The notes below the pieces were generated by a model, which did no database searches, was not told the DNA's origin, and saw only the letters and a program-made list of their open reading frames with translations. Shown here in pieces: positions 6,198-46,709 of a DNA stretch of 64,000 bases (positions are counted from its first letter, which is position 1; the number at the start of each line of letters is the position of its first letter). The position numbers and the translations under genes were made by a program. This DNA is from Promethearchaeota archaeon (GTDB taxonomy: Archaea; Asgardarchaeota; Lokiarchaeia; Sigyniarchaeales; SOKP01). The stretch covers positions 1-64,000 of the forward strand of contig SDNY01000001.1 of NCBI GenBank assembly GCA_004524535.1. Reading direction: 5' to 3'.

Positions 6198-6340
6198 TCA
6201 TATCACTTCTAAAAAGAAATCTAAATTTCTCTTTTAAAGAAAGTTCCTTCCATTAAAAAAATCTTACTATTTTTCTTTTTTATTTTTTTTATCCACTGTT
6301 AACCTTTAAATATATATATTCTTATAGTATATTTGAATAA

Positions 6341-22979: not shown

Positions 22980-23037
22980 AAAACTCTAAAAAAAAAATTT
23001 AATAAAATAATAAAAAATAAAAAAAAATGAAATAAAA

Positions 23038-24102
23038 ATGGTAAAACCAATATTTTTGACTTCTCTACGAGAACGAGTAGGAAAAAGCCTTCTTTCCATA
23101 GGAATAATGCAAAAATTACAAAATATGGGGAAAAAAGTTGCTTATTTTAAGCCAATTGGTATCCCGAAAGGTGCCTTTAGTCAAAAGAATGATCCCGATG
23201 TGGGCTTCATATTGAGTACCGTATTTGTTACAGAACAACCATACGAAATAGTAAATCCTGTATCTATTCCTGATTGTTATTACATAGATCTAATCGACGC
23301 AAACCAAAAAATAGAGCATTTAAATAAAATTAAAGCAGCTTATACTGAAATCTCGAAAGATATGGATTATGTTATTATAGAAGGTGCCCCGAGTATAAGA
23401 AAATATGTTAGAGTAGGACTGGATGATGTTTCCGTTGCTCAATCATTAGGAATTAATGACTTAATCTACATTTCAGTTGAAAGCTCAGATAAATGTATTG
23501 ATAATCTCTTTTTTACTAAAAATTATTTTGATTTTAGGCATGTTAATTTCAAAGGGGTAATTTTTAATAAAATTGATTTTGATTACATTGCAAGGATTGA
23601 GGAATTAGAAAAAAATCATATTAGAAGATATAATATTCCCGTAATTGGAAAAATAGAGAAAAGTATTGAATTATTTAGTCCTAGAGTTTCTGAAATTATG
23701 GAGGCTATAGGTGGTGAATTTATAAACGAAGCAGCAGCATCAGGGTTAGATAATAGAGTTGAAACTAATATAATCGGTGCTATGAATCCTCAAGCTGCTT
23801 TGAAATATCTAAGACAAGTTAGAAAAGCTGCTGTCGTTACTGGTGGAGACCGAGTAGATTTAGCTCTTGCAGCTTTAAACCAAGATGTCTCATGCTTAAT
23901 TTTAACTGGTTATATACAACCTGATATTACAGTAATAACTGCTGCAAACGAAAAAAATATACCTATAATTTTATCACCTTCCGATACTTATACGACCATA
24001 AGGAATATTGAAAGACTAAAGCCAGGAATCCAAAAAGATGAAATACATTTAGTCTTAGATGTTATTGATAAATTTATCAATTGGGATTTGTTATTTAATT
24101 AA
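23038..24102 (+). CDS. Phosphotransacetylase-family protein (BioD-like plus DRTGG domains, no catalytic PTA domain)
   Basis: GKS...YFKP, IIEGA, VTGGDRVD...LILTG; adjacent to ACD. Confidence 0.85.
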   Translation: MVKPIFLTSLRERVGKSLLSIGIMQKLQNMGKKVAYFKPIGIPKGAFSQKNDPDVGFILSTVFVTEQPYEIVNPVSIPDCYYIDLIDANQKIEHLNKIKAAYTEISKDMDYVIIEGAPSIRKYVRVGLDDVSVAQSLGINDLIYISVESSDKCIDNLFFTKNYFDFRHVNFKGVIFNKIDFDYIARIEELEKNHIRRYNIPVIGKIEKSIELFSPRVSEIMEAIGGEFINEAAASGLDNRVETNIIGAMNPQAALKYLRQVRKAAVVTGGDRVDLALAALNQDVSCLILTGYIQPDITVITAANEKNIPIILSPSDTYTTIRNIERLKPGIQKDEIHLVLDVIDKFINWDLLFN

Positions 24103-24890: not shown

Positions 24891-26693
24891 ATGAAATTAG
24901 TAAACCCGTATAAGCCATCTGTATATCAACTGGAACCTCGGAAAAGGCTAATTTGGATAATCTCTCTTATCGGATGTGGTATTTATGCAATTATCGTATT
25001 TATAATTTTATTTATACTTCAGATACCAAATGAATTAATGATTATTACGATCTATACTTATATGGTTATTGGACCATTAACTATATATTTGTTATGGCTT
25101 GTTTTTTATAGATGGAAAATAAAAAAATGGCCTCGAAACAAGAAAGTATTTGGTGAACCAATTCATTATACATTACTTTTAATATCGATTGGTATCTGTG
25201 TTATTAACTGGGCTGCTTATTGGAATACGGGTCTTGATAGCATTTGGTTAATTTTTGCATCATGGATTTATATTCTTAGTGATAACTTATTACTTGGGAC
25301 TATAATCTATACTGTTGGTGCTTCAGCTATTACACCTGCTTTTACTGAAGAATTCTTGAAGTCTTTCCCTAGCATTATTGCTTTTTTTGTAGTTTTACAA
25401 AGGGATAGAAATCTGGAGGAGAAGAGAAAGGGATTGTTAGGAAATGAGTTAGGAGGATTTTTATTTGGATTAGTAATTGGAATAACATTTGAGATTTTAG
25501 AGCTAATATATTATCTATTAATTACAATATCCTCAGGAGGAGGTGCTTTTGATATATATTTTCAAGTTACCGTTAGAGATTTTTCTCCACTTCATATACT
25601 TGGAGGTGCAATTGGTGGATTTGCGGCGGGCAGGGCTGAAAGACTTCGTTATGAGCGAGGAGAAGAGGATTTACCTATGAAAATTCAAATAATCAATTTT
25701 ATTAAACGTTTTTTACCATTATGGCTTATCCCCGTTTCGATCCACTTTCTCTGGAATAGTTCAAGTGTTTGGATTTATTTAATAATTCTAGCGATAGATG
25801 GTGATATATTGTTAAATTTAATTCTTGAGATGATCGTAATCGTTACATTAAGTGCATTATGCTTTTTTATATTACTTTTACTATTAAGATGTGCTAATAG
25901 AATTACTGAGAAAACTTATCGATGCTCTGAAACAGGGATTATCGTTGCAAAGGAAGGGGATATTTGTTCCTTATTTAGTGACAAAAAAACCGATGTTGAA
26001 CCAACAAAAAAACCTTTAGATAAAGCTTTTATTGCTCAAGACACAGAAATTGTTTGTCCAAATTGTGATAAGGTAAATATAAGAGGAGCAAATTTCTGCA
26101 TAAATTGCGGTTTCCAAATAGCTAGTTATTATTATTGTCCAAATTGCAGTAAGGCTAATAAATTTGGAATAAAATTTTGTATACACTGTGGATTTCAAAT
26201 ACAACAATTAAAAACACCCCAAATTTTTCCTATGTCAAATGAAAGACCCTCTAAAGCATTACTCGTCATTTCGTTAATTGTAACTATAGGTTTTCTATTT
26301 TATATTGTATTATTTGCAATTTTAGCTTTGCTGATATATGGCATTTTTGGATTTTTCTATTTAGCTTTTCAAATAAGCATAGAGATAGTAGCTGCAGTAG
26401 TAATGTTTTATGCTATTATAACTCTCTTTAAAATGAGGAAGAATTATAATGGAAGAAAAAATATCTGGTCATGGTATCTTTTAATTTTTAATTTAATTGG
26501 AATATTTGGACTGCTTGTAATTTATGGTATTTTAGGTGTGATTTATGGAATTATTGCATTCACGCTCGGCTATATTACGTTAATAACGGGGCTTGGATTC
26601 CTTTTTCTAGCTGGAGCCACATTAGTTTTTATATTTCTTTTAAGAACAATATTAAAATCTGATGAAATGCTTCAATATCAAACTAAAAATTAA
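24891..26693 (+). CDS. PrsW-family intramembrane metalloprotease with a double zinc ribbon
   Basis: EEFLK, FEILE and HFLWN motifs; two CPNC...FCIxCG ribbons. Confidence 0.8.
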   Translation: MKLVNPYKPSVYQLEPRKRLIWIISLIGCGIYAIIVFIILFILQIPNELMIITIYTYMVIGPLTIYLLWLVFYRWKIKKWPRNKKVFGEPIHYTLLLISIGICVINWAAYWNTGLDSIWLIFASWIYILSDNLLLGTIIYTVGASAITPAFTEEFLKSFPSIIAFFVVLQRDRNLEEKRKGLLGNELGGFLFGLVIGITFEILELIYYLLITISSGGGAFDIYFQVTVRDFSPLHILGGAIGGFAAGRAERLRYERGEEDLPMKIQIINFIKRFLPLWLIPVSIHFLWNSSSVWIYLIILAIDGDILLNLILEMIVIVTLSALCFFILLLLLRCANRITEKTYRCSETGIIVAKEGDICSLFSDKKTDVEPTKKPLDKAFIAQDTEIVCPNCDKVNIRGANFCINCGFQIASYYYCPNCSKANKFGIKFCIHCGFQIQQLKTPQIFPMSNERPSKALLVISLIVTIGFLFYIVLFAILALLIYGIFGFFYLAFQISIEIVAAVVMFYAIITLFKMRKNYNGRKNIWSWYLLIFNLIGIFGLLVIYGILGVIYGIIAFTLGYITLITGLGFLFLAGATLVFIFLLRTILKSDEMLQYQTKN

Positions 26694-26761: not shown

Positions 26762-28171
26762 CTATTCATTCAAGAGTCCATATCTTTTAAGTCCTTCTCT
26801 CATATCGGCTTGAAATGGTCCTGGAGTGCCCTCTATAAATGCTTCAACAATATCCTGGTTTTTAACCTCTTTTGAAACTCTTTTTTTTGCTTTCTCTTCC
26901 GCAAGTGAGGAAATTGCCATTCTCGCCATAGATTGAAATTGTGGGGGCGATAATTTTATTAATTCATCAAAAATCCTCGCAGTCTCGGGATTCCAGTTTA
27001 ATCCCTTTTTTTTCTTTTCCTTTGGTTTGGCAGTGTCAATACCAAATTCCCGACTGGTTATTAGATCATCAATATAATCATTCAATGATTCAACATACCT
27101 AGGAGCTTCTTCTTTATCAAGAATAACTGCTTTTTTCCCCCATTGTTCACAATAATTACATTCATCACACATTGAAATACAGTCTTGCTTTTTGAAGAAT
27201 TCAATAAATCCATCGAGTTTAGTATTATCTATTATTAATTTCGATTTAGGCTCTTTTACAAACGTTTCAGTCATTTTAACATTAGGATCTTTTTCAACTC
27301 CAACAGTCATAGAAAAACCTTGAATAATATCTACAAGGTTTCCTTCATATTTACGAGATGAAAATGCCTTGACAGCTCGAAGTATCCATTCAGTACTCAT
27401 ACGGCGTCCAGCAATTTTGAAATTTTCAATTCCAATAGCCTCATAATGAGATAAATCCTCGGGGCGCACCCATCGTGCTTTAACTACTTCAGTAGGATTT
27501 GAAAATTTAATGACACTGCAATTAAGGATACAATAATCAATATATACCCCTCCGAGTTGGTGGGAAGATTGAGAAGAATGCCCTACAATATTATAATGAT
27601 AATATCTAAAAGGACATTGATATAAACAACCATCAGTTAAAAGGAGATTAATATTACATTTAACTGCTTTTTTAATTTTCTTCAATGTCTTAAAATCGCG
27701 ATTAATCATTACATCGGGGGTAATCTCATCAGCACCCATTGCTTCATAGAATTTTGCCCGATTAACACTGTTAACGTGAGCAATTGTAGAGACACGAATT
27801 TTCAACTTGGGAAATTGTTCTTTTATTAAGCGGATTAAAAAAGGAATAGTCACAATTACATTATCCGACCCAATATCGCTTATCCATTGAAGGTAATTTA
27901 GCAACTCTTTATGATACGCCGCATCATATTCCATATTACCCATACATGGCGCATTAAGCAAATAAGAGAATTTCATTTTTTTTTCATGAACATTCTTAAT
28001 ATATTCCGCAATTTGTTCTTCCTTAATATCCTTTAAAAGAAATGAAGGCCGTCCATGGCCAACAATAGAGGATTTTGAAGCTCCATAGATCTCTCTTACT
28101 GGATATTTAGCTAATTCATCGATGAGTTTAAAATCCCAATTTGTCGCAACGGTAAATTGAATTCTTTTCAC
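26762..28171 (-). CDS. U32-family Fe-S protein (UbiU/UbiV/TrhP superfamily) with C-terminal DUF2621/PCP_red-like domain
   Basis: YLLNAPC, VSTIAHV, GCLYQCP...YCILNC, FKIAGR; C-terminal W...P..F...AE...TP..F domain. Confidence 0.8.
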   Translation of the reverse strand: MKRIQFTVATNWDFKLIDELAKYPVREIYGASKSSIVGHGRPSFLLKDIKEEQIAEYIKNVHEKKMKFSYLLNAPCMGNMEYDAAYHKELLNYLQWISDIGSDNVIVTIPFLIRLIKEQFPKLKIRVSTIAHVNSVNRAKFYEAMGADEITPDVMINRDFKTLKKIKKAVKCNINLLLTDGCLYQCPFRYYHYNIVGHSSQSSHQLGGVYIDYCILNCSVIKFSNPTEVVKARWVRPEDLSHYEAIGIENFKIAGRRMSTEWILRAVKAFSSRKYEGNLVDIIQGFSMTVGVEKDPNVKMTETFVKEPKSKLIIDNTKLDGFIEFFKKQDCISMCDECNYCEQWGKKAVILDKEEAPRYVESLNDYIDDLITSREFGIDTAKPKEKKKKGLNWNPETARIFDELIKLSPPQFQSMARMAISSLAEEKAKKRVSKEVKNQDIVEAFIEGTPGPFQADMREGLKRYGLLNE

Positions 28172-28279
28172 CTTAAAATAAAATTACTATTCCTATATAA
28201 TAATTTATAGCATAAATTAAAAATGATGAAAAAAAATATTTTCAATAGATTATCATGTATTAATTTCTTGATTTCCTCA

Positions 28280-28666
28280 TTATTTACTCACTTTTCCGTG
28301 AGCTTTAGCATTTAATGGCAATAAAGGAGCACAAGCCATGAGCTTAGACATATCTCCTTCGACTACATAAGTTCCAGTCATAGTTTCTTGAATAGGATCT
28401 GATTCACCCGAAAGAGTTTTTTTCAATGTGCTGAAGTCAGTTTTATGGGATATTTTTGGAGCATCTGGACCTGAATATTCACCCATCCCCCATTTTATCT
28501 GGTCTTTTTCAACAAATTGCCAATAATTCATCTCTTCTCTATCTGTTATAATGAATTGGAATGTCAATGGCGCAAGTGCTCCCAATAAGGGAGCTAATTC
28601 TGGCAGCTCATTAAATGCTTTCATATATTCTGTAAGATATGCTTCCCATTCTTCTTTTGTATCCAT
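28280..28666 (-). CDS. SCP2 sterol/lipid-binding domain protein
   Basis: TFQFII...LSGESDPIQETMTGTYVVEGDMSKLM SCP2 signature. Confidence 0.8.
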   Translation of the reverse strand: MDTKEEWEAYLTEYMKAFNELPELAPLLGALAPLTFQFIITDREEMNYWQFVEKDQIKWGMGEYSGPDAPKISHKTDFSTLKKTLSGESDPIQETMTGTYVVEGDMSKLMACAPLLPLNAKAHGKVSK

Positions 28667-28943
28667 CTAAATTTTCACCTCCTTTCTTTTTCATTTGTTA
28701 AATATTTTTAATTTTCATAATTTATAACAACCTTACCGTTGGGACATAAATTGGAATCCAATTTAGTAGGTCAATTCTTGGAGATATACAAAATTTCTTG
28801 GGGCAAAAAAACCTACAACATTTATTCCAACATCCGAGAATAATATATCCTTATTCATCACTATTCGTATCCAGCATATAATTTATTAATTAGAATTGAA
28901 AATTATTTTTATAGAAGTAAAATAATTTTTACATTCTTTAACA

Positions 28944-30113
28944 TCATTTAACTTCTAAACCAGCTTTAGCACCATCTGATAATAAATTTATCATACTTTC
29001 AGTGTAATCATTTTCAATCTTGTAGAAAAGGCCATCACGACCAAACGTAATACTACAAATAAATTTATGGATCTTTGTAATAGTTGGAATATTTTCGACA
29101 TATTTTTTGATCAATGGATGAAAATTCACTGGAGCTTGCTCTTCTTCAGGAAAACCGATTCCAAAACAGATTCGCTCTACCCTATCACTATCCCAGTTAA
29201 AAGTGTAATAGATAGTCAAAGCCTCACAACATTTTTTCATTACTTCCGGCGGGCCAATTTCGAAATTTAGCTCTTTGAGTAAAGTTTCATAAACTTCTTG
29301 TCTAGCTTTTGACGGATCTTTAATCATGAAGTAGATATTTGTAGAATTATTACGAAAATCAAGACCAAAGACACTAAAAACATTAAGTCCATGTTTTTCA
29401 AAATAATCTCTATGTTTATTAATACTATTTGGGATTGTAGACATTGAATATGTTGGTTCAAATGGACTAGGGACGATGAACGGCCAGATTTTAGACAAAC
29501 CAGTCCTTACATCCAAATCAACACCCCACCCCAATATATCAAAGGTTGATAAAATCTCTGGAATCATCTTATGAATTGGATGCCCATTTTTTTCAATTAA
29601 TCCTTCATTAATTGCAGTTGTGTAAGGATCTGGATTGTGAGGTATCATATGCTCTAAATATCGTACTGAAATGTCTCTTTTTTCTTTTGGTTTTGTGGTT
29701 GTTCGGATTGTAACCGTCGAACCAGTATAAAAATCCTTGTAAGCATTTAATACATTCCATATCGCTTTTTCATCACATATAACTTCTGCAAGTTCCCCTA
29801 TTTTTAATATGTGATCAACCAATTGTTTTAGATCTGTATTAAATTTATATGTACACTTTATCTTTGCAAGATATTTGTCAAGATCAACATTTAACCTTTT
29901 CAAATCCTCTTTCATCATGTCTTGAAAAGCTGGTGGGGTAACTTCAAACATAGAGATAACAAGATCTACCTCAGCTACAGCTTTTCCATTTCGCTCCATA
30001 CATTTCTTCTCTGCAGCTTCACGAACTACGGGGCCAACTATAGGTCTAACTGTTTCTGGAGTTCCCGCTACAATTTCTTCATAAAGCTTTTTAACTTCTG
30101 GTTGCCATTCCAT
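28944..30113 (-). CDS. Soluble ABBA-type aromatic prenyltransferase (NphB/CloQ/PpzP family) with N-terminal DUF2621-like domain
   Basis: IRTTT...ISVRY, GVDLDVRTGLSKIW, FGLDFRNNSTNIYF, IYYTFNWDSDRVERICF, YKIENDY match the PT-barrel strands in order. Confidence 0.82.
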   Translation of the reverse strand: MEWQPEVKKLYEEIVAGTPETVRPIVGPVVREAAEKKCMERNGKAVAEVDLVISMFEVTPPAFQDMMKEDLKRLNVDLDKYLAKIKCTYKFNTDLKQLVDHILKIGELAEVICDEKAIWNVLNAYKDFYTGSTVTIRTTTKPKEKRDISVRYLEHMIPHNPDPYTTAINEGLIEKNGHPIHKMIPEILSTFDILGWGVDLDVRTGLSKIWPFIVPSPFEPTYSMSTIPNSINKHRDYFEKHGLNVFSVFGLDFRNNSTNIYFMIKDPSKARQEVYETLLKELNFEIGPPEVMKKCCEALTIYYTFNWDSDRVERICFGIGFPEEEQAPVNFHPLIKKYVENIPTITKIHKFICSITFGRDGLFYKIENDYTESMINLLSDGAKAGLEVK

Positions 30114-30182
30114 TTTTAATATTTACCTTCTTTTTCTGAAATTTTTTTTATTTAATTCTTTCATTTTTTTTAAGATTTTTAA

Positions 30183-31604
30183 TTAATTTTGATATTTAGC
30201 AAATTGAATTTGGCCCATTTCATTAAATCCTTCTGGATTATTTAAGCCAATTCCGGGTGCGAACCATCCTGAATTTTTTTCACAATATTCTCTTATTATT
30301 TGAAATAAATCGAATTCTTTGATTTTTGGAGAGATATAAAATTTAGGTTTTAACAGGTTCTCTCCATTTTTTAACACTCCATCTTGTACTGCGATGCGCT
30401 GGAGAGGGGTATGTGGGTAAATTCTCATTCCTGAAAAAATAACCACATCATTATCACCTTCCCACACCTCTCCCCTAAAATTTTCGATTGTTTCTAATTG
30501 ATTAAATGAAGCACGAACGGTTTCAACAGTTTCATCTGGTCCTCCAACAATTATATGAATTAATTGTTCAATTTCTAAATCAAAACATCTTTTTGAAGTA
30601 AGGATAGCATCATCTGGAGTCCTCTTTTGCTTTATATTTCTCAAAATCTCCTCTGATAAAGATTCAAAACCTGTATCAAGATGAGTAACCCCACTTTCCT
30701 TCATGAGGGGCATTAAATCAACAAATTCTTTATTGGGATCGTAATTTGCCCCCCATTTTAAATCGATTTTGCGTTTTATTATTTCTTGGCATATCTCTTT
30801 TAGATTTTGGTAATTTAAATTGAGAACACCATCAACAAAAAAAACATTATTAATTCCTAAATTATTTACAATAAATTCAAGTTCATCAGCTATTCTTTTG
30901 GGAGATCGATACCGAACGGTCGAACCTTCAATATATCTATAACTACAATAGATACATTTATGAGGACAACCACGCTTTGTTTGAACATTTCCCCAAATAG
31001 CACCTGTTTTATTCATACAATAGATATATTCATTATTATCTACCAACTCTCTAGCAGGATTTGGCAGATCATCAAGATTTTTAACGCGCCATGGTGGTTT
31101 TTGATGATAATTTCCTTTTCCATCTATAAAACATACACCTTTTTCTATTTTTCTAGGATCTTCATCCTTTTTAATATGTTTTAAAATTTCAATAAAAACA
31201 TATTCACCATCTCCAACGACACCAATATCGTGGTTTAAATCCCTAAGAATCTCTTCTGAAAAAATTGAGAAACCAGCACCACCTAAAACTATTGGAATAT
31301 CTGGTTCAGCAATCTCTTTTATATACTGAATAATACGCTTAGCTGGTAAGTAAAAAAATAGATTTGCTGGATAAGTTGTTGAATCAATATTACGAATAGA
31401 GATACCTATTAATTGAGGATTAAAATCATCTATTGCTTTTGTGATATCATTCTTTGAATCGTTACTAAGAGTTAAATCCCTTAGCATTACTTCATGTCCT
31501 TTAGAAAGAAGATAGGACGCAATATATGCTTCTCCTATAGGTGGGACCATTACATGTACTAGTTCCCGACTCCCAGAAAATATTAATACTCGCATAATCC
31601 TCAC
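30183..31604 (-). CDS. B12-binding-domain radical SAM enzyme (resembles the lipid-biosynthesis type)
   Basis: PPIG, ISIRNID, VLGGAGFS, GDGE, QTKRGCPHKCIYC. Confidence 0.88.
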   Translation of the reverse strand: MRIMRVLIFSGSRELVHVMVPPIGEAYIASYLLSKGHEVMLRDLTLSNDSKNDITKAIDDFNPQLIGISIRNIDSTTYPANLFFYLPAKRIIQYIKEIAEPDIPIVLGGAGFSIFSEEILRDLNHDIGVVGDGEYVFIEILKHIKKDEDPRKIEKGVCFIDGKGNYHQKPPWRVKNLDDLPNPARELVDNNEYIYCMNKTGAIWGNVQTKRGCPHKCIYCSYRYIEGSTVRYRSPKRIADELEFIVNNLGINNVFFVDGVLNLNYQNLKEICQEIIKRKIDLKWGANYDPNKEFVDLMPLMKESGVTHLDTGFESLSEEILRNIKQKRTPDDAILTSKRCFDLEIEQLIHIIVGGPDETVETVRASFNQLETIENFRGEVWEGDNDVVIFSGMRIYPHTPLQRIAVQDGVLKNGENLLKPKFYISPKIKEFDLFQIIREYCEKNSGWFAPGIGLNNPEGFNEMGQIQFAKYQN

Positions 31605-31641
31605 CTCTCTCTTATTCGCAATTTATTGAATCCTTTATTAA

Positions 31642-33036
31642 TTATTCAATTATTAATTCTTCACGAGAATTATCTCTCTTATGGTCATGATCATTTTCAT
31701 GCCAACAATATGAAAATGGTCCGAATATATCACCCGTTTCACATTCAGCATGCACGCGACAACCTCCACCACAATACTGAAGATGATGACAAGATGCACA
31801 TTTTCCATTACGTTTTTTTCTGTCTCTGATGTCTTTAAATAGTTGGGAGTTAAGTACATCTTCAAAGCTGTCCTCTAAAGCATTACCGAGAGTGGTTTTT
31901 GTTGGATAGCCACATGGATAAATAGTACCGTCCACCCCAACACCCATCATTGTTCTGCATGCCAAGCATCCTATCCCCCATTCAATTGTAGCCAATTCCT
32001 TATCATCTCTTATTTCCTCCACAAAGGGGGTCATCTCATATATTTCATAAATGGGTAATGTACCTGCTTCGCCTTCTCTTATTTTTTCAATAGCATGCTT
32101 GAATTTGAAATCATATAATTTTTTATATTCCTCTTGACTGAGTCCGATTTGATCCCAAAATTCAGATGCTCGATTTTGTTTTACTACAGCTCTAAAAAAT
32201 GTTTCTGCCCCCCATTCTTCTGATAATGCCTTAAGTTTATCTAGCTCATTAATGTTTTGCTTCATTATTGTAATTGAAGTACATACAAATAATCCATATT
32301 TCAAGCAATTTTTTATTGCTTTTTCTGCATATTCTAATGAATTAGTAAATCCACGGATTTCATCATTTTTTTTGGGATCTGCGCTTTCAAAACTAACAAA
32401 CACATGACTCATATCATTATGCTTAGCCATTTTGGCAAATTTCTCATCAAATTTTACACCGTTGGTTATAATAGCATGAATATAACCCTTTTCTTTACAA
32501 AATTTCATAATTTCGGAAATATCTTCGCGTAAAGTAGGTTCACCTCCAAACCATATATAACATCCATGTCTTCCTTGTTTTTGTAATCCTGTTTCCAAGT
32601 TTTCTATTATTTGGAACCATTCTTTTGTTGAAAGCTCAGGGCGAGGTATATAATCATCTACAGCACAATGTAAACATTTCATATTACATCTATCAGTAAG
32701 ATACATTGCAAAATGTACATTACCTGGACGAAAAGCTCTTATAATATTTTCCCAACTAACTTTGATTCGATCCATGATATCCTTCAGTACAATATACCGT
32801 TCAACATCAACTCCCAGTGATGTCAAATCCTCAACCGTCGTTGGTTTAAATGCTTCAGGAGTTACATCAAATATCCCAGTGACCAAATCAGCTTCATTGA
32901 TATTGGAACCGTTCCGTTCATTGCATTTATTCTCGGCAGCTTTTATTATCATCGGCTTTACAGAAGGACGAATTCCTTCGGGAATTTTTTCTATAATTTT
33001 ATTAAATAATTCTTCTGTTTTTTTTTCCCAATCCAA
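31642..33036 (-). CDS. Radical SAM/SPASM protein with N-terminal DUF2621-like domain
   Basis: CNMKCLHC, FGGEPTLR; SPASM GC...IYPC...CASC...CGGGCR. Confidence 0.9.
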   Translation of the reverse strand: MDWEKKTEELFNKIIEKIPEGIRPSVKPMIIKAAENKCNERNGSNINEADLVTGIFDVTPEAFKPTTVEDLTSLGVDVERYIVLKDIMDRIKVSWENIIRAFRPGNVHFAMYLTDRCNMKCLHCAVDDYIPRPELSTKEWFQIIENLETGLQKQGRHGCYIWFGGEPTLREDISEIMKFCKEKGYIHAIITNGVKFDEKFAKMAKHNDMSHVFVSFESADPKKNDEIRGFTNSLEYAEKAIKNCLKYGLFVCTSITIMKQNINELDKLKALSEEWGAETFFRAVVKQNRASEFWDQIGLSQEEYKKLYDFKFKHAIEKIREGEAGTLPIYEIYEMTPFVEEIRDDKELATIEWGIGCLACRTMMGVGVDGTIYPCGYPTKTTLGNALEDSFEDVLNSQLFKDIRDRKKRNGKCASCHHLQYCGGGCRVHAECETGDIFGPFSYCWHENDHDHKRDNSREELIIE

Positions 33037-33042
33037 AAATTA

Positions 33043-34416
33043 TCACCTTGATTTGCAATTTTCATGTTCATGGTCATCTTCATGCCAACAGAAAGGAAGA
33101 GATTCTAGAAAATCACCGGTTTCGTTCTCTGCGTGGCATCTGCAACCACCCCCACATAATTCGAGGTGATGACAAGATGCGCACCGCCCTTTTATATTTC
33201 TATCTCTAATATCTTTGAAAAGCTTTGATTCCATTATTTCATTGAAATCTTGCTTTAGCACATTGCCCAAGGTTAATTGGGATGGATAATCGCATGGGAA
33301 GAAATCTCCATTAATATCAATACCTGAGACTGAACGACATGCTTGACATCCTACCCCCCATTCTAAAGCTGTTCGCTCTTCATCGTTGACAGGGCATTCC
33401 ATGAAAGGTACCATGTCATACATAAGAAACTTATGGATACCACGCACTTCCCCTTTTCTGATTGCATCAGTAATTTTACTATATTTAAAGGTATAAAATT
33501 GCCGGTATTCATCCAAATTTAACCCTATTTCATCCCAGTTTATATCAGCAGATCTTTGTTTAATAATTGCTCTGAAATATACTATTACACCCATAGATTC
33601 TAATCTGTCTTTTATTTTTTCCAACTCATCAAAATTTTCTTTTTGCGCAGTTGCGGTACAAATAGTAAGATTACCATATTTTAGAGATAATTTAATTGCT
33701 TTTTCAGCTGCTTCATATGCGTTTGGAACGCCTCTAATCTTCGCAGCTCTTTCAGGATCCACGCTATCGTAGCTAATAAAGACATGACTGATTTTAACCT
33801 CAGCACATAATTTTGCAAGTTCCTCATCAAATAACATACCATTTGTAGAAACAGCTTGATAATATCCCTTTTCACCACAATACCTTATCAAATCATTGAG
33901 ATCCTTGCGAAGAGTAGGCTCTCCACCAAACCATATATAACAACCTCGACGACCACGTTTTCGTAATGTTTCCTCGACATTTTCGATAATGTCAATCCAT
34001 TGTTCTGTTGATAATTCTGGACGATTCTCTATCACTGAAGCACCACAATGGCGGCATTTTTGGTTGCATCGATCAGTTAGATACATTGTGAAATGATAAA
34101 CTCCTGGGATAAATGCAGCGCTTACATCGTCCCATGAACGTGCATGTGCCTTCATAATTTCTGATAATTGTATATACCGATCTGTATCTATTCCTAAATC
34201 TTTCAAATCATTAACTACAGTTGGTTTAAACGGTTCCGGTGTAATCTCAAACAGTGCGGATAATAAATCATCTTTTCCTACAAATCTAGAATTCCTAAGC
34301 CTTGCTGTTTTTTCAGCGGTTTCATGCAACATAGGTTTAACTGCTGAACGAAACGCCTCAGGAACCTGATCTGTGATTTTCCCGAACAAATTCTCAACTT
34401 CTTGTTCCCATTCCAT
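33043..34416 (-). CDS. Radical SAM/SPASM protein with N-terminal DUF2621-like domain (paralog of the downstream gene)
   Basis: CNQKCRHC, FGGEPTLR; SPASM GC...FFPC...CASC...CGGGCR. Confidence 0.9.
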   Translation of the reverse strand: MEWEQEVENLFGKITDQVPEAFRSAVKPMLHETAEKTARLRNSRFVGKDDLLSALFEITPEPFKPTVVNDLKDLGIDTDRYIQLSEIMKAHARSWDDVSAAFIPGVYHFTMYLTDRCNQKCRHCGASVIENRPELSTEQWIDIIENVEETLRKRGRRGCYIWFGGEPTLRKDLNDLIRYCGEKGYYQAVSTNGMLFDEELAKLCAEVKISHVFISYDSVDPERAAKIRGVPNAYEAAEKAIKLSLKYGNLTICTATAQKENFDELEKIKDRLESMGVIVYFRAIIKQRSADINWDEIGLNLDEYRQFYTFKYSKITDAIRKGEVRGIHKFLMYDMVPFMECPVNDEERTALEWGVGCQACRSVSGIDINGDFFPCDYPSQLTLGNVLKQDFNEIMESKLFKDIRDRNIKGRCASCHHLELCGGGCRCHAENETGDFLESLPFCWHEDDHEHENCKSR

Positions 34417-34527
34417 TTTTGCTCAACCTAATCTGAATTTTTCACTCTTATTGTTTTTTTAAAAAAATGCTTTTTTTTTTATTTAAAATTGAAATAATTT
34501 TATAATTGCAATTTATGATATTTTTAA

Positions 34528-35241
34528 TCATTTTTTTCCCTCCCAAATGACATATTCATTAAAATCAGAAATATAATTAATTTTGAGATGAGGATAGGAA
34601 TTATTAGAAAGATAAATCCCTGGTTTTTCAAAAAGAGAATACTTCGCTAAATATAAAATTCTTTTGAAATAACAATTTAGTTTGAACTCAATTTTCCTAT
34701 AAGAAATCCTTTTTTGAAAAGTGTTATTTAAATATCTCTTGTTCCTCAAATTTATAAAGAAACTATTGATTCTCTCATTCTTTTTATAATTTCTATCAAT
34801 TTTTCTTATGAGTTCATCATCTATATACTGTTTTATTTGACTACTGAGATAAAAATAATAATGTGTTTCTTTAGACATAAAAGAGACTGTATCTAAATAA
34901 CGAAATGCTTGAGTATCACCATAAAATAATACTTTTTTAACATAATGATAACAGCAAGAATCAATAAAACAATAGATACTGATTATAATATAAATATCAC
35001 TTAATTGACCAATACTCAACGGAATAATTTGTTGCCCTTTAGGTAAAAACCATAAAATCTTTATATAAGGTAGATTCGGAATAAAAAGTGAATTACCACA
35101 TTTAAAGTAATCCTTTAATGAAGAAGACAAAGAGTTTATATTACTTAAAAACGTGTAGATCAATGTAACAAGGAAAAATGAAGAAAGAAACAGTAGAATC
35201 AAGAGTATTTTTAGTTTTTTAAATATTTTAATATTATACAT
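34528..35241 (-). CDS. Hypothetical protein with N-terminal hydrophobic segment
   Basis: 237-codon open frame in very AT-rich DNA; atypical composition, no family recognised. Confidence 0.4.
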   Translation of the reverse strand: MYNIKIFKKLKILLILLFLSSFFLVTLIYTFLSNINSLSSSLKDYFKCGNSLFIPNLPYIKILWFLPKGQQIIPLSIGQLSDIYIIISIYCFIDSCCYHYVKKVLFYGDTQAFRYLDTVSFMSKETHYYFYLSSQIKQYIDDELIRKIDRNYKKNERINSFFINLRNKRYLNNTFQKRISYRKIEFKLNCYFKRILYLAKYSLFEKPGIYLSNNSYPHLKINYISDFNEYVIWEGKK

Positions 35242-35334
35242 CTATTAATTACCTAATTCAATAATTAATTTGAATATTTTCTTAGTTCAAATAAATAATA
35301 TTTTTGTTTCATTAAATTTAATAGTATCGAGATC

Positions 35335-36825
35335 CTATTCATCCATTGTTTTAGTAAATTTCAATGATGATGTAAGAAACAAGGGCGCTGCATGTATTAA
35401 AAATAGTGTGTTTAAATTTTGAATATTAGTTCCAGTAATAAATCTCTTTTTGTAATTAATAACGTTATAAAAATAAGACTTTTTAGCTTTTTTAAATGCT
35501 TCAACGACTTCTAAAAACGAATTATATTTTAATTTTATTCCAAAACTCTCTGGAGATTCATGAGCAGGAGAACCAGGAAAAATATAGTAAGCCTCATTCA
35601 TTATTGTAATTGGCTTGAAATTTGATTTGCCATATTTTAATATACATTTCGATGCAAAAATAAAATCTTTCATAACATCAATAAAGGATTGAAAAGGATA
35701 ACCCATTGTCAACCAAATTCTTAATTTCGTTAGGTTTAAATTCGCATTTTTTATAGTATCTTTAATTTGATTTAAAGGGAAGTTAAATGTTGGATCGCAA
35801 ATTTTTGCTATTTTTTGATGCACACGATGAGAAGTTGTTCGAGGAGAAATACTAATTGATGAATCTCTCCGAGTAAATGTTTTAGAAAACATTTTCCACA
35901 TTTCTTTCGGAAAGGGAAGCCGCCAAATCTCCAAATCTCCACCTATATCAAGATTCTCTTTTTGCAACAGCTTAAGTATTTGCTCCCAATATTTTAAATT
36001 AGAAGGATAAGCACCATGGCCAAAAAAAATACTTGGAACTTTAAATTTGTTAAGAACATTGTTTATATCTTCTATAACCTTTTCTGGACTCCTAAGAACA
36101 ACATTGTTTCGCCCAGCTAACAGTTGTTGAGCTCTTTGACCTCCTCCACAAAGAGGACAATTAAATCGACATCCTCTTCCAATAGGGATAACGCCAGAGA
36201 TTCCCATCATCTTTCTGCTATTTTCAAAATAATATTTAGCATTTTTTAGGAGTGAAAAATTTGTAAAATTCAAATCATCTAAAGTCTTAGCTACATAGGA
36301 AATAGGATTTTCTTTAATATGTTTTGAAGAATCTTGATATGATAAATTGGGAACAGAATCTAATAATTTATTATGATTTACCTTTTGAATATATTGTAAA
36401 AATGGAGTTTCACCATCTCCACTAATGATCGCATCGATTTCTTTAAAGTACTTTAAAATATCATTACGATAATATGAGGCACTTAGACCTCCAAGAATAA
36501 TTTTAACATTTGAATTTACTGATTTTACAATTTTGGCAATCTCAATAACTGCATGCGAGTTATGTATCCAATGTAAATCAATTCCACATATATCAAAATT
36601 AATAGATTTGAGATAGTCTTTTAATGACCAATTAATATCTAAGAATTGCTCTAATGGATAATTTATAATTTTAACTCCAAAGCCCTCTCTTTCAAGTAGA
36701 TCGGCAATGGCAAAAACACCCATTGGAATGAAAAGGTACGATCCTCGAATAAATCTGGCCTTTTTACCATAATTATGTTTTAACGTACGAGGAGGATGAA
36801 TAAAAATTATGTCGTAGCTTTTCAA
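35335..36825 (-). CDS. B12-binding-domain radical SAM enzyme
   Basis: IPMG, GIDLHW, ILGGLSAS, GDGE, GRGCRFNCPLC. Confidence 0.88.
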   Translation of the reverse strand: MKSYDIIFIHPPRTLKHNYGKKARFIRGSYLFIPMGVFAIADLLEREGFGVKIINYPLEQFLDINWSLKDYLKSINFDICGIDLHWIHNSHAVIEIAKIVKSVNSNVKIILGGLSASYYRNDILKYFKEIDAIISGDGETPFLQYIQKVNHNKLLDSVPNLSYQDSSKHIKENPISYVAKTLDDLNFTNFSLLKNAKYYFENSRKMMGISGVIPIGRGCRFNCPLCGGGQRAQQLLAGRNNVVLRSPEKVIEDINNVLNKFKVPSIFFGHGAYPSNLKYWEQILKLLQKENLDIGGDLEIWRLPFPKEMWKMFSKTFTRRDSSISISPRTTSHRVHQKIAKICDPTFNFPLNQIKDTIKNANLNLTKLRIWLTMGYPFQSFIDVMKDFIFASKCILKYGKSNFKPITIMNEAYYIFPGSPAHESPESFGIKLKYNSFLEVVEAFKKAKKSYFYNVINYKKRFITGTNIQNLNTLFLIHAAPLFLTSSLKFTKTMDE

Positions 36826-37002: not shown

Positions 37003-37971
37003 ATGATTGATATAGCATCTATGCTCGAAAATATGAGTTTAGGAGATTTTTTGTTTATAATTGTATTTCCATTAGTTTTACTTTTACTACTTCTAATTAT
37101 TTTTATCAGTGGATTATTAAAAAAAAAAATAAAGCGAGACTTTATGAGTTTAGACGAATTCATAATGGATTGGCTTAGAGATCACGGACAAGCTCATAAG
37201 TTGGATGATCAATTTGCGAAAATGAGAAAGGACCCTGCTGGAAGAATTTATATGCCAATAACTTATCATGGAGCAAAATTTGCCATAAAATGCGGTTTAA
37301 CACCAAATAAAGTTTCTTATATAAATTTAATTTTATCATTTCTTATATTTTATGGGGTAATAATGGCTAGTCGGGGCCATACACTTGATTTATTTACTCA
37401 ACAGCCATATTATGGTGTTTGGTTTATTCCTCTTGCTTTTTTGGCTTTATTTACAGGAATTATTGATGGGATTGATGGAGCAATAGCTAGATTAACAGAA
37501 ACAAAGTCTAGAGCTGGTGCTTGGTTAGATAATGTGATTGATAGAATTAGTGATATATTATTATTAGTATGTCTAGTTCCAACCAGCTTTCTCGTCTTTC
37601 CTGAATATGGACTTGACTTTACATGGATAATTTGGACGAATATTTTTCTAATTTTTCTTTATGAATACATGAGATCCAGACATGAAGGTTTAGGTTTGCA
37701 TGAGGCGAAACCATTTGTGGGTGAAAGAATAACTCGTTTTTTTATTATCTTTACATTTTTTCTAATTTATGGCATTTCGAGTTTCTTTATATTAATTACT
37801 AATTGGATCGATCCCTCTGCTACTAAAATCTGGGCACATTCTCATGGTGGAACAATAAAATGGAATATGCTAATTTTTCAAATCAATTTATTATTGATTA
37901 TGGTCTTTTCATCAATTAAATTAGCACAATATAGTTTGAAAAACCTAAAAAAATTGGATGGAATCAAATAA
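37003..37971 (+). CDS. CDP-alcohol phosphatidyltransferase family protein
   Basis: TPN...DGIDGAIAR...GAWLDNVIDRISD signature. Confidence 0.9.
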   Translation: MIDIASMLENMSLGDFLFIIVFPLVLLLLLLIIFISGLLKKKIKRDFMSLDEFIMDWLRDHGQAHKLDDQFAKMRKDPAGRIYMPITYHGAKFAIKCGLTPNKVSYINLILSFLIFYGVIMASRGHTLDLFTQQPYYGVWFIPLAFLALFTGIIDGIDGAIARLTETKSRAGAWLDNVIDRISDILLLVCLVPTSFLVFPEYGLDFTWIIWTNIFLIFLYEYMRSRHEGLGLHEAKPFVGERITRFFIIFTFFLIYGISSFFILITNWIDPSATKIWAHSHGGTIKWNMLIFQINLLLIMVFSSIKLAQYSLKNLKKLDGIK

Positions 37972-38009: not shown

Positions 38010-39341
38010 TTGTATACCGTTATTTTAGTAATTTATTTTATTCTTTTACATATCTATTTTCCACCTTTTTTATCAGCAGGAACGAAAAACGCAATTGATA
38101 CCTTCATTAGTAATCCTTTAACCTATTGGTGGTTTATATTTCCATTAATTGGACTAATCACATTATTGATCTTGATCATTTATTATGGAAGATGTTTCTT
38201 ATCTTCATTTGGGCGTGGTTATCGAACTAAAAAACCCTATAATGCTAAAATAAGTATACTAATTGCATCTAAAAATGAAAAAACATTATTAGATAGAACA
38301 TTAAATTCCATTCTCGCATCAGATTATCCAAAAGAAGACATTCAAATAATTATTATTACAAGTGGTTCAACAGATGGTACCACTGATTATTCTAACAATT
38401 TTGCCAAAGAAAATAGTTCAATTGATATAGAAGTATTATCTGAGAATCTACCTAAAAAAGGAAAACCTCCAGCATTGAATTATGGACTTAAATACGTAAA
38501 AAATGATATCGTTGTTCTTTATGATTCTGGTTGCATTTTAGAACAGAATACATTAAGAAATTTAATATCACCATTTCAAAAAGAAAAAAATAATGCAGTT
38601 ATAGGGCCTGTCCTTGTTAAAAATTGGAAGATCAATAAATTAACCAGAGCGCTTTTCCTTGACTATGCTTTTTTATCTGGTGGAGGATTATTATTTGAAA
38701 CGAAAAACAGATTAGGTAAATCTGCTTATTCATTCGGACGAAATTTTGCCGTAAGAACTAAACACTTAAGAAAATCTGGAGGATTTAACGAAGATTCAAT
38801 GACAGAAGATCTCTATCTTTCTGTAGTTCTAAATTTAGATGGGATTAAAATTCTATTTTCTCCTAAAGCAAAAGTCTATGAATATGTACCAAGTACTTGG
38901 GAGATCCTAAAAAAACAACGTACAAGATGGGTTGCTGGATATATTTATGATATGCCACAATTAATGGAAATGAAAAGCGAAGAAAAAGATGGCAAAAAAA
39001 TTATAATCGATAGAAATATGACGATGATGCTTTTAGGAAATATAGATGCTTGGATTCCAATATTCATTGGATTCGCAATATTTTTCTTTCTTATCGGCGA
39101 GTGGTATCTATTAAGTTGGTTTCTTTCCTGTTTAATCTTTCAATTTGGCTTTTTATTTAAAGCCGTACGAAAATATGGCGATAATCATTTTAGTATTTTG
39201 TTTTGGTGGCCAATAAGCGCTTATATTCACCTCTATATGTTTCTACGTCAATTCAGTTTGCCAAAAGAAATCAGCTGGGATAAAACTCCAATGATTTTAG
39301 AAAAGCAAGAAGAAGAAGTTAAAGCTCTATCGACTAAATAG
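38010..39341 (+). CDS. Membrane GT2 glycosyltransferase (processive-type motifs)
   Basis: STDGT, GKPPALN, TEDL, QRTRW and flanking TM segments. Confidence 0.88.
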   Translation: MYTVILVIYFILLHIYFPPFLSAGTKNAIDTFISNPLTYWWFIFPLIGLITLLILIIYYGRCFLSSFGRGYRTKKPYNAKISILIASKNEKTLLDRTLNSILASDYPKEDIQIIIITSGSTDGTTDYSNNFAKENSSIDIEVLSENLPKKGKPPALNYGLKYVKNDIVVLYDSGCILEQNTLRNLISPFQKEKNNAVIGPVLVKNWKINKLTRALFLDYAFLSGGGLLFETKNRLGKSAYSFGRNFAVRTKHLRKSGGFNEDSMTEDLYLSVVLNLDGIKILFSPKAKVYEYVPSTWEILKKQRTRWVAGYIYDMPQLMEMKSEEKDGKKIIIDRNMTMMLLGNIDAWIPIFIGFAIFFFLIGEWYLLSWFLSCLIFQFGFLFKAVRKYGDNHFSILFWWPISAYIHLYMFLRQFSLPKEISWDKTPMILEKQEEEVKALSTK

Positions 39342-39343
39342 CC

Positions 39344-40213
39344 TTAATACATTACTTTATTATATTTCTTCTTTTTTTTGAACGACCTGTCGAAGATTGA
39401 TTTTCTATTATCTTTTTTCCATTTTAAACGATTACGCCAGCGTTCAATAGCTTCCAAAGGAAATCCAAGATTCTTTTTGCGCAGAAAAAAATTAAAAAAA
39501 CCAAGTAAAAGAAAAGCAATAATCACACTAAGAGCTAGTAGTACAATATCAATTACAAAAATTTTTATATAGCTTAAGTAAAAATAAAGAAAATAAATAG
39601 AAATTAATGTATTTGATAATAATAGAATATGCATTAAGTCTGTCATTTTATTGGTTTTAAATTTTTTTCTTTTGCTTATCCCATGAATCCCAAATTGGAA
39701 ATTTATAAAAATTGTAAAAAAGGCGAATATATATAGAATTAACGAAATTTGAGAAATCAAACACGAAATTTGATAATAATACGAAAAAGGAAAAAGTGGA
39801 GTTAGATATATAAAATAACGCTCTTTATAGATGGAAAAATGATAGAGAAAAATGTTTATCATTGCAAAATCGATCGCAATAGCACAAACCGGAGCGGTTT
39901 TTGCTGGATTTGAATCAAGCACATGAAGTAAAAAAATAAAGACATACATAGAAAACATAGCTAAGAAAAGATTCAAGAATAAAAGAGTTGAGAATGACAT
40001 TGAAAAAACAATTTCTTCTATTGATGGAATATCTGTTCTAGTAGGTAACCTAGGATCGGAAAACTTTGGGTGAAGATAAACCTCAAGAAACCAGGAAAAT
40101 TCAAGAAAAATCATAAAAATTGTTAATGTCAGAAATAATTGAACCTGAAATATAAAAGCAGTCCAATTTTTTACTTTATTTTTTTTTTTAGAGCTAATAT
40201 TTTCCTTTTTCAT
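39344..40213 (-). CDS. Hypothetical polytopic membrane protein
   Basis: About six hydrophobic segments. Confidence 0.6.
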   Translation of the reverse strand: MKKENISSKKKNKVKNWTAFIFQVQLFLTLTIFMIFLEFSWFLEVYLHPKFSDPRLPTRTDIPSIEEIVFSMSFSTLLFLNLFLAMFSMYVFIFLLHVLDSNPAKTAPVCAIAIDFAMINIFLYHFSIYKERYFIYLTPLFPFSYYYQISCLISQISLILYIFAFFTIFINFQFGIHGISKRKKFKTNKMTDLMHILLLSNTLISIYFLYFYLSYIKIFVIDIVLLALSVIIAFLLLGFFNFFLRKKNLGFPLEAIERWRNRLKWKKDNRKSIFDRSFKKKKKYNKVMY

Positions 40214-43203: not shown

Positions 43204-43229
43204 GGAGTAATTTATTGAGTGAGATATAA

Positions 43230-44735: not shown

Positions 44736-44793
44736 AAGTATTGCATTTCATTATTAGAGATTATAATAGAAAACTTAATAATAATAAAAAAAA

Positions 44794-46238: not shown

Positions 46239-46709
46239 TTAATAATGAGTGATAAGTACTGTACACAGTCCTATTGCATTTAAAATAATCCCAAATATTC
46301 CAAGAACGCCTCCCTCATCTCCTGCCTTTTTAATATATCCTTTTGAAAGAATTCCTAAAGTTAATCCTCCACTATGAAGTGTTATCATCACTGTCAGAAC
46401 AGTAGCTCTCCATCGATAATATTTCAGTGTCCATAAATCTGGTCTTGTAAGTAGAAATATTGGACCAATTAAAATTAAACTTAATAATCCTATAAGAAAA
46501 GATGATATTGCAAAGAGAGAATACAATGTTGAATAGAACCCTCCTTTCTTGTAAGACATCTGGTACAGTGCACTAGCTTTTGATGTATTTTGGGTGCTCT
46601 CAGGTCTTATTTGAGGAAATATAGAAGAGATTAGATTTTCTTTACCACAGTTATGGCAAAACTTCTGATTTGGATTATTTAATTCTGTACCACAATTAGC
46701 ACAATACAT
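46239..46709 (-). CDS. Zinc-ribbon membrane protein
   Basis: MYCANCG...FCHNCG followed by three TM segments. Confidence 0.75.
   Translation of the reverse strand: MYCANCGTELNNPNQKFCHNCGKENLISSIFPQIRPESTQNTSKASALYQMSYKKGGFYSTLYSLFAISSFLIGLLSLILIGPIFLLTRPDLWTLKYYRWRATVLTVMITLHSGGLTLGILSKGYIKKAGDEGGVLGIFGIILNAIGLCTVLITHY

Follow-up and report, generated by a model that had tools for sequence, protein, structure and literature searches.

Three groups of described proteins lie closest to the gene cluster reported here: the UbiT/UbiU/UbiV proteins of Proteobacteria, the aromatic prenyltransferases of the ABBA type, and radical S-adenosylmethionine (SAM) enzymes with a SPASM domain such as AhbD, MftC and PqqE. 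A study on the first group gives the cysteine pattern of U32 proteins as CX6CX15-16CX3/4C, and that of UbiU as CX6CX16CX38C, and reports a ubiT-ubiU fusion in Zymomonas (PMC6747719). In the ABBA enzyme AmbP1, eight residues are said to bind diphosphate (PMC6632223, section 8). We analyzed a stretch of 64,000 nucleotides (hereafter the window) from a Promethearchaeota archaeon of the Asgard lineage (assembly GCA_004524535.1, contig SDNY01000001.1, positions 1 to 64,000). It carries an operon that encodes a divergent U32-fold protein, an SCP2 protein, an ABBA prenyltransferase and four radical SAM enzymes. Four of the operon's proteins are linked by a shared domain of about 80 residues. This gene set probably specifies an O2-independent tailoring pathway for a lipophilic small molecule, centred on the SCP2 protein.

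Six co-oriented open reading frames (ORFs) on the minus strand were confirmed at 26762-34416, with the coordinates given in a preliminary description of the locus, and Pfam matches support the family proposed there for every gene. The boundaries set in that description proved too narrow, since two co-oriented upstream genes (34528-35241 and 35335-36825) also belong to the cluster; the shared domain, genes G and H and the fusion variants had likewise been overlooked. The conserved unit thus comprises eight genes in the order H-G-F-E-D-C-B-A, at 26762-36825 on the minus strand, separated by gaps of 6-277 nucleotides:

H, 35335-36825, minus strand: B12-binding radical SAM protein, first gene of the unit (Pfam B12-binding 6.8e-14, Radical_SAM 4.4e-7).
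G, 34528-35241, minus strand: small membrane protein (alignment of 18 orthologues; directly upstream of F in 17 of 20 related loci).
F, 33043-34416, minus strand: shared domain (34165-34416) followed by a radical SAM/SPASM enzyme, part of the minimal core (Radical_SAM 3.5e-22, SPASM 4.2e-9).
E, 31642-33036, minus strand: shared domain (32785-33036) followed by a radical SAM/SPASM enzyme, a paralogue of F (Radical_SAM 1.4e-23, SPASM 1.1e-11).
D, 30183-31604, minus strand: B12-binding radical SAM protein that lacks the shared domain (B12-binding 3.7e-16, Radical_SAM 8.6e-22).
C, 28944-30113, minus strand: shared domain (29862-30113) followed by an ABBA prenyltransferase barrel at residues ~94-378 (PF11468 PTase_Orf2 7.1e-51).
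B, 28280-28666, minus strand: stand-alone SCP2 protein (PF02036 4.1e-6, 27.5 bits against a cut-off of 21.3).
A, 26762-28171, minus strand: divergent U32-fold protein with a C-terminal shared domain at 26765-27010 (Peptidase_U32 PF01136 9.3e-14).

For synteny, 20 loci were fetched from 17 other Asgard genomes and their ORFs were compared with the window proteins. The order H-G-F-E-D-C-B-A recurs across these loci; with the same genes in the same order in 17 other genomes, the check for co-occurrence elsewhere that the preliminary description proposed comes out in its favour. Genes F-E-D-C are contiguous in 11 loci (L038, L039, L040, L044, L045 and L047-L052), and L043 has the same run with two SPASM-SCP2 genes inserted. 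G is syntenic in 17 of the 20 loci and H in 12. Because the order recurs in 17 genomes and four of the six proteins first described are linked by the private domain, the grouping is not a chance one. Among 301 sampled genomes of the phylum, the prenyltransferase query matches 22, three of which (G258, G204 and G228) are reached through the N-terminal domain only; a full-length prenyltransferase is present in 19. All of these matches come from the family to which the window belongs (20 of 68 genomes) or from one other family. Of the 301 genomes, 25 encode the U32 protein A, namely 22 of the 68 in the same family and one genome each in two other families. The system is therefore accessory and patchily distributed. 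Near the cluster, L044 carries an actin-family gene (5186-6328; 1.7e-48) and L038 a Ras-family GTPase gene (2069-2629; 7.3e-51), consistent with an Asgard origin.

The cluster exists in several versions. In 8 of the 20 loci the free SCP2 gene is replaced by genes for proteins of ~383 and ~683 residues, placed after C. L041 lacks D. In L042 and L046 the genes are rearranged, with an extra copy of the prenyltransferase or of a SPASM gene. A metagenomic locus, L065, carries prenyltransferase and SPASM genes and adds three genes for U32 proteins with the shared domain, a class I methyltransferase, two HemN-like radical SAM enzymes and an adenylation-carrier didomain; its prenyltransferase lacks the shared domain. 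No SCP2 gene was seen in the examined part of L065, about 4.4 kb of the contig lying outside.

Leaving aside L054, a half-cluster that was omitted from the count, SCP2 is present in all 19 loci, free in 11 and fused to a U32-like protein of ~680 residues in 8. The 683-residue protein encoded at L040:13171-15222 consists of a U32 region, the shared domain and SCP2, and P0249 and several database proteins of 640-690 residues are also U32-SCP2 fusions. The two SPASM-SCP2 proteins of L043 carry SCP2 at their C-terminus and lack the shared domain. The presence of SCP2, free or fused, in every informative locus thus ties it to the enzymes of the cluster, and the gene fusions with U32 and SPASM proteins substantiate the functional coupling of U32 and SCP2 put forward earlier. 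We infer that the shared domain and covalent fusion to SCP2 are alternative ways of joining an enzyme to the carrier, a proposal best argued from the occurrence of SCP2, in one form or the other, in 19 of 19 loci. An alignment (A3) that takes in free SCP2 proteins together with SCP2 domains fused to U32 or SPASM enzymes has four invariant residues, His74, Lys75, Cys112 and His123 (residues 74-123 of the protein encoded at 28280-28666). Such invariance is unusual for a passive lipid-binding fold, and the residues could form a metal site or a covalent attachment site.

In C, E and F the shared domain makes up the N-terminal ~84 residues, and in A the C-terminal ~82; these segments are homologous, with 29-44% identity among the four window copies. 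Fifty copies from the loci align readily, with Trp3, Pro19 and Pro60 invariant. The AlphaFold2 model, with a mean predicted local distance difference test (pLDDT) score of 92.4, is a four-helix domain with two additional two-residue strand or bridge stretches. Searched with a profile of this domain, the genome (3.66 Mb, 99% complete) yields four matches and no more, each of them within the cluster. Its position within proteins is variable: C, E and F carry it at the N-terminus, A and the prenyltransferase of G294 at the C-terminus, and the 683-residue protein internally. In the model of A it hangs on a flexible lysine-rich linker (residues 381-390, mean pLDDT 59). When 8000 candidates from a large database were scored with the domain profile, the matches were prenyltransferases, U32 and U32-SCP2 proteins, and three proteins of 151-260 residues that have no Pfam family. 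A stand-alone copy of 75 residues is encoded at L038:19605-19832 (G207), beside a CDP-alcohol phosphatidyltransferase gene; the corresponding match in the genome survey spans a TAA stop codon.

Similarity of this domain to known families is faint. All four copies score below threshold against DUF2621 (PF11084; 17-23 bits against a cut-off of 27.7, E 7e-5 to 2e-3). The model overlays the PCP_red domains of BchB (2kru, root-mean-square deviation (rmsd) 3.1 over 61 columns) and asr4154 (2l09) without significance; over all PCP_red overlays the rmsd is 2.7-3.4 over 57-61 residues, with Z-scores within the stated noise for helical models. PF08369 (PCP_red) has no match in the genome at E<=1, and the domain profile retrieves nothing below E 0.25 from PDB sequences and no PCP_red structure. 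A Foldseek search of the PDB with the domain model gave nothing at E<=1e-3; its highest-ranked entries, histone folds and AAA+ lids, are taken here as reflecting a generic helical arrangement in the model. The best overall structural match, the BchI lid (Z 8.4), was set aside as falling within the same noise. As a lead only, the ESM Atlas lists bacterial 'MftC family' radical SAM/SPASM clusters with a PCP_red domain (score 0.96). Complex prediction for SCP2 (alignment A3) with the shared domain (alignment A2) returned a score of 0.00, which is no answer and is silent on binding either way.

C (PRENYLTRANSFERASE) matches PF11468 over profile positions 2-283 of 287, with 173.8 bits against a cut-off of 22, and is predicted from its homology to proteins of solved structure to adopt the prenyltransferase-barrel (PT-barrel) fold. 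Its closest relatives of solved structure are the indole prenyltransferases AmbP3 (1.4e-41) and AmbP1 (1.6e-40), the phenazine prenyltransferase EpzP (2e-35), NphB (3.8e-20) and CloQ, in a range that extends down to 7.6e-11. Six of the eight AmbP1 diphosphate residues, Arg46, Lys117, Asn168, Tyr170, Arg223 and Lys278, are kept as Arg137, Lys208, Asn259, Tyr261, Arg314 and Lys365. Trp119 of AmbP1 aligns to Trp210 of C. The two remaining positions are changed, Tyr227 to Gly318 and Tyr276 to Phe363, the latter being a tyrosine in the family consensus. Lys208, Trp210, Asn259, Tyr261, Arg314 and Lys365 are invariant in 36 family sequences. C therefore looks like a competent enzyme, given that six of the eight diphosphate residues and the conserved tryptophan are retained and mostly invariant in the family. 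The full-length family match and the intact-looking diphosphate site agree with its earlier designation as an ABBA prenyltransferase. A large protein collection contains 131 homologues, most of them of ~390 residues and 50-90% identical; about a quarter carry a source name, and the informative names are mostly those of Asgard metagenome-assembled genomes. As far as we could establish, and judging by sequence, this would be the first ABBA prenyltransferase family documented as conserved in archaea.

In A, the match to Peptidase_U32 covers residues 88-170 only, corresponding to positions 2-82 of the 233 in the profile, and scores 51.7 bits (cut-off 22.4). In a genome-wide U32 search A scores 44.7 bits, and three canonical U32 genes elsewhere in the genome score 216-273 bits. 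The AlphaFold2 model (pLDDT 92.6) has the U32 fold: the top Foldseek match is the U32 protein Mk0906 (5d88; E 1.3e-12, TM-score 0.75 on the target), with generic TIM barrels trailing at about 2.5e-6. The family of A is large: 1860 cluster representatives match at E<=1e-3, of which 565 reach E<=1e-30. Most members have ~385 residues and no shared domain. It conserves Cys76, Cys182, Cys186, Cys218, His192 and His198, together with a second motif, C331-x3-C335-x2-C338-x2-C341. In hhalign alignments, Cys182 and Cys186 correspond to Cys169 and Cys176 of UbiU, given as cluster ligands in the UbiU literature (PMC6747719). Binding of a cluster by A is plausible because four cysteines are present. A tree of 32 rows built on the first 300 residues places A and the 383- and 683-residue proteins across a 100/100 split from UbiU, UbiV, TrhP, RlhA and the genome's three canonical U32 proteins.

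The ~383-residue protein (L040:12015-13166, with homologues in L042, L043, L045, L046, L047, L049 and L050) has no Pfam or NCBIfam match, but phmmer relates it to A (3e-30 to 5e-23). Its constant partner is the 683-residue U32-domain-SCP2 fusion, an arrangement that recalls a heterodimer of the UbiU/UbiV type. A metagenome scan with P0131 gave loci L066-L107 (G+C content 0.42-0.55), many of which carry a gene of ~421 codons from the same U32-like clade without the shared domain, directly followed by a B12-radical SAM gene encoding 501 residues. Next on these contigs there is often a Liv-type ABC transporter (Peripla_BP_6, two permeases and two ATPases). The gene pair appears to be widespread and uncharacterized, its hosts probably being anaerobic bacteria. 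Close homologues of A (67% identity) labelled 'Candidatus Deferrimicrobium' were not treated as bacterial, the label being probably a binning error.

No radical SAM enzyme of the unit reaches the cut-off of a curated equivalog family. The best scores of E and F against named enzymes are those for AhbD (136.9 bits, cut-off 500), NirJ1 (126.2, cut-off 650), MftC (118.2, cut-off 265) and PqqE (94.2, cut-off 381), none of which reaches its cut-off; the AhbD score is that of F. D and H each have a B12-binding domain (PF02310) followed by a radical SAM domain (PF04055). The best model for D is TIGR04072, 'lipid biosynthesis B12-binding/radical SAM protein' (290.7 bits over nearly the full length, cut-off 360), followed by BzaD (205.5 bits), and that for H is TIGR04190, the Ta0216 family (249.4 bits, cut-off 500). 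The membrane protein G has no Pfam or NCBIfam match. Its N-terminal ~110 residues are conserved and contain one clear and one probable hydrophobic segment, and its C-terminal half evolves fast.

Upstream of the unit, and mostly transcribed away from it, lies a block of genes possibly associated with the operon:

37003-37971, plus strand: CDP-alcohol phosphatidyltransferase, whose best match, archaetidylinositol phosphate synthase, stays under its cut-off at 68.8 bits.
38010-39341, plus strand: glycosyltransferase of family 2 (GT2).
39344-40213, minus strand: ORF without assigned function, between the plus-strand neighbours.
40353-41687, plus strand: LuxE-like adenylating enzyme.
41758-46233, plus strand: three tandem B12-binding radical SAM genes (best matches BchE and HpnJ, 160-214 bits, all below cut-off).

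At least one of the phosphatidyltransferase, GT2, LuxE-like or additional B12-radical SAM genes lies in the fetched flank of 8 of the 20 related loci, and L050 and L056 have the same plus-strand block. This block may represent a further unit for the tailoring of lipids or cofactors, or may belong to the operon's own pathway. On either side of the cluster, both in the window (24891-26693, 46239-46709 and 46821-47351) and in several related loci (e.g. L041:4901-6838), there are zinc-ribbon proteins, some of them with a C-terminal hydrophobic segment. The genes at 20832-24102, an ADP-forming acetyl-CoA synthetase-type gene (CoA_binding, Succ_CoA_lig, ATP-grasp_5) followed by one for a DRTGG/AAA_26 protein, belong to ordinary fermentative metabolism and are unrelated to the cluster. 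A 135-residue ORF at 32762-33169 on the plus strand, antisense to the E/F junction, is almost certainly spurious.

From these observations we propose that the operon, found in one family-level Asgard lineage, would carry out O2-independent tailoring of a hydrophobic substrate. The lipophilic intermediate would be held by B, the SCP2 protein, and C would attach a prenyl chain from a prenyl diphosphate to the aromatic or other nucleophilic head group. A, as a putative two-cluster U32 enzyme, would hydroxylate the ring without O2, possibly joined in other genomes by a further U32-like pair, one member of which carries a fused SCP2. C-methylation would be the task of D and H, the B12-radical SAM enzymes, and the SPASM enzymes F and E may carry out radical decarboxylation or C-C/C-H chemistry. 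The enzymes would be brought to the carrier through the shared four-helix domain of C, E, F and A or, in the variant loci, through fusion to SCP2, and G, as a small membrane protein, may serve as the membrane anchor of the assembly. That the product is a prenylated, hydroxylated and methylated aromatic lipid, quinone- or quinol-like, is the leading explanation but falls somewhat short of an even chance in our estimate, its aromatic core and quinone-like character being purely inferred. A further version, in which carrier-protein logic is applied to lipids and SCP2 shuttles a prenylated aromatic among four enzyme classes to yield a novel lipid-soluble redox cofactor without O2, seems to us rather unlikely; in that version the invariant Cys112 of B and the LuxE-like acyl-protein synthetase nearby would even allow the intermediate to be tethered covalently.

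An aromatic product would fit the kinds of reaction that ABBA enzymes and U32 hydroxylases are known to catalyse and the multiple U32 paralogues per cluster. Extensive decoration of an aromatic ring would call for enzymes such as L065 adds (methyltransferase, U32 proteins, HemN-like radical SAM enzymes and didomain). In the genome, chorismate synthase is present and neither the UbiD family nor the MqnA/D families have a match, so a quinone-like product would not duplicate a canonical quinone pathway; together with a DAHP (3-deoxy-D-arabino-heptulosonate 7-phosphate)-synthase fragment in L064, these findings count in favour of an aromatic product. The window contains no UbiA gene, as had been pointed out, the three UbiA-family matches of the genome being on other contigs.

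Several results weigh against this proposal. The parallel drawn earlier between the SCP2 protein and UbiT was not upheld, since B has no specific likeness to Escherichia coli UbiT (hhalign probability 0.4%, E 0.13). Nor is A a protein of the UbiU/UbiV kind, as had been supposed: it belongs to a separate deep clade with a different cysteine pattern and a second four-cysteine motif, and phmmer gives no UbiU or UbiV match. Its spacing, CX3CX31C with one cysteine far upstream, departs from the U32 pattern given in PMC6747719. The clusters of L055 (G204, 100% complete) and L056 (G258) consist of H-G-F-B-A only and lack C, E and D, so that F is kept and E absent in both; no prenyltransferase was found in G204 or G258 with the query used here. 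Prenylation by C is therefore not essential to the core. The cluster has no gene for making an aromatic head group and none that would obviously provide one, and in the window it has no O-methyltransferase. The best curated family of D is annotated as lipid biosynthesis, and head-group enzymes adjoin the cluster. Finally, for Promethearchaeum syntrophicum MK-D1, in which the presence of the cluster was not checked, the accessible portion of the description lists only phytane and biphytanes with 0-2 rings and gives no quinone data (PMC11316595).

Part of this evidence would be explained if the cluster instead tailored archaeal ether lipids (archaeol or glycerol dialkyl glycerol tetraethers, GDGTs). 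SCP2 would then extract the lipid, the radical SAM enzymes would methylate, cyclize or cross-link its chains and the U32 protein would hydroxylate it without O2, with the prenyltransferase module as an optional extra decoration. Besides the near full-length TIGR04072 match of D (290.7 bits), this explanation draws on the back-to-back arrangement with the CDP-alcohol phosphatidyltransferase, GT2 and three B12-radical SAM genes, recurring in 8 of 20 loci, on the reduced clusters L055 and L056, which lack the prenyltransferase, and on the conserved membrane protein G. B12-radical SAM and radical SAM enzymes (Tes, GrsA/B) are also the known tool-kit for modification of archaeal lipid chains. However, E and F match the tetraether synthase Tes through the generic radical SAM core only (1e-17, 64 bits, cut-off 450), and fewer than half of the loci have head-group genes adjacent. 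Among proteins of known structure, C is closest to indole and phenazine prenyltransferases and, to our knowledge, all characterized ABBA prenyltransferases and U32 hydroxylases act on aromatic or heteroaromatic rings or on heteroatoms rather than on saturated isoprenoid chains. We regard ether-lipid tailoring as doubtful, but as the main rival of the aromatic-lipid proposal. RNA base hydroxylation by A, as by TrhP and RlhA on tRNA and rRNA, with the neighbouring genes unrelated, is hardly credible. The family of A is nearer to TrhP (hhalign probability 96.9%, E 1.3e-10) than to UbiU (78%, E 1.8e-5), and the sole NCBIfam model matched by A itself, that of TrhP, scores 32.9 bits (cut-off 534). 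Nevertheless, the phylogenetic check proposed earlier separates A from the RNA hydroxylases: the genome's three canonical U32 genes group with the E. coli enzymes, and A lies across the 100/100 split. A-type proteins are, moreover, fused to SCP2 and share their private domain with neighbouring enzymes.

The product might also be a ribosomally synthesized and post-translationally modified peptide (RiPP) or a protein-derived cofactor, in which case the SPASM enzymes would cross-link or decarboxylate a precursor, C would prenylate Tyr or Trp and the shared domain would recognize the leader. E and F do score 100-118 bits against MftC and 90-94 bits against PqqE, and the ESM Atlas lead mentioned above concerns MftC-like clusters. 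Many RiPP radical SAM enzymes carry an N-terminal recognition element, which is where the ~100-residue extension of E and F sits, and ABBA-fold enzymes prenylate cyanobactins. Yet no convincing precursor peptide was found, the ORFs of 20-39 codons in 28150-28960 looking random, and no protein matches a PqqD or RiPP recognition element (RRE) family in Pfam or NCBIfam. RRE folds are winged helix-turn-helix domains with a β-sheet, whereas the shared domain is modelled as essentially all-helical. The constant presence of SCP2 in the loci and its fusion to enzymes point to a lipid rather than a peptide, and we consider the RiPP explanation improbable. Modification of a tetrapyrrole or corrinoid in the manner of AhbC/AhbD/NirJ or BchE/BzaD, with the shared domain as a PCP_red-like substrate lid, is now disfavoured; a modified tetrapyrrole was named as an alternative in the preliminary description. 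The best NCBIfam models of E and F (AhbD, NirJ1/2 and AhbC; 119-137 bits), the BzaD score of D, the BchE matches of proteins M, N and O (176-214 bits) and the non-significant overlays on 2kru and 2l09 would be in keeping with it. All these scores are far below curated cut-offs, however, and neither PF08369 nor the domain profile connects the domain to PCP_red, its Z-scores remaining within helical noise. A tetrapyrrole substrate is very unlikely because a search of the 99%-complete genome gave no ALAD (porphobilinogen synthase).

The prevailing view of Asgard archaea of this lineage is that they are fermentative syntrophs lacking quinones. If the aromatic-lipid proposal is true, a dedicated anaerobic pathway to a prenylated lipid of the redox type would alter views of membrane bioenergetics in the closest known relatives of eukaryotes; the version with carrier-protein logic, if true, would represent an independent, UbiA-free invention of quinone-like biosynthesis in that lineage. 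Whatever the product, the locus reveals a large uncharacterized deep clade of U32-fold proteins with two conserved four-cysteine motifs that is repeatedly coupled to SCP2, and an ABBA prenyltransferase family conserved in archaea. The occurrence of one small domain on four enzymes offers a testable case of metabolon wiring around a lipid carrier.

The system shares several features with UbiT/UbiU/UbiV of Proteobacteria. In both, an SCP2 gene stands beside genes for U32-family iron-sulphur (Fe-S) proteins (PMC6747719), and SCP2-U32 fusions exist in both, ubiT-ubiU there and U32-domain-SCP2 here. In 8 of the 20 loci a U32-like pair (~383 and ~683 residues) is encoded side by side, like UbiU and UbiV. 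The Asgard U32 proteins nevertheless form their own deep clade, distinguished by cysteine spacing and the second four-cysteine motif; the SCP2 protein is not UbiT-like by profile, and the cluster has no UbiA, UbiE or UbiG gene. Prenylation would instead fall to a soluble ABBA enzyme. The Asgard cluster has, in addition, four radical SAM enzymes and a private domain, and its host is an anaerobic Asgard archaeon rather than a proteobacterium. With AmbP1/AmbP3, EpzP, NphB and CloQ, C shares the full-length PF11468 region and six of the eight diphosphate residues. It differs by an extra helical domain of ~85 residues (N-terminal here, C-terminal in G294), by its archaeal origin and by its setting in an Fe-S/radical SAM operon rather than in an actinomycete or cyanobacterial secondary-metabolite cluster.

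E and F have the Radical_SAM plus SPASM architecture of AhbD/AhbC/NirJ, MftC and PqqE, their best curated matches, but their scores of 90-137 bits are far below the cut-offs of 265-650, and at the N-terminus they are extended by the shared helical domain rather than by an element of the PqqD kind. This domain is weakly similar, below threshold, to PCP_red of the BchB C-terminus and to DUF2621, and is here spread over the enzyme classes of one operon. In line with the preliminary description, the searchable literature, subscription journals excepted, yielded no published account of this gene combination, of Asgard ABBA prenyltransferases or of DUF2621. The building blocks of the cluster are known families, and its pairing of SCP2 with U32 has a precedent in UbiT/UbiU/UbiV; new are the private shared domain, the fusion of SCP2 to several enzyme classes, and the deep U32 clade with a second four-cysteine motif.

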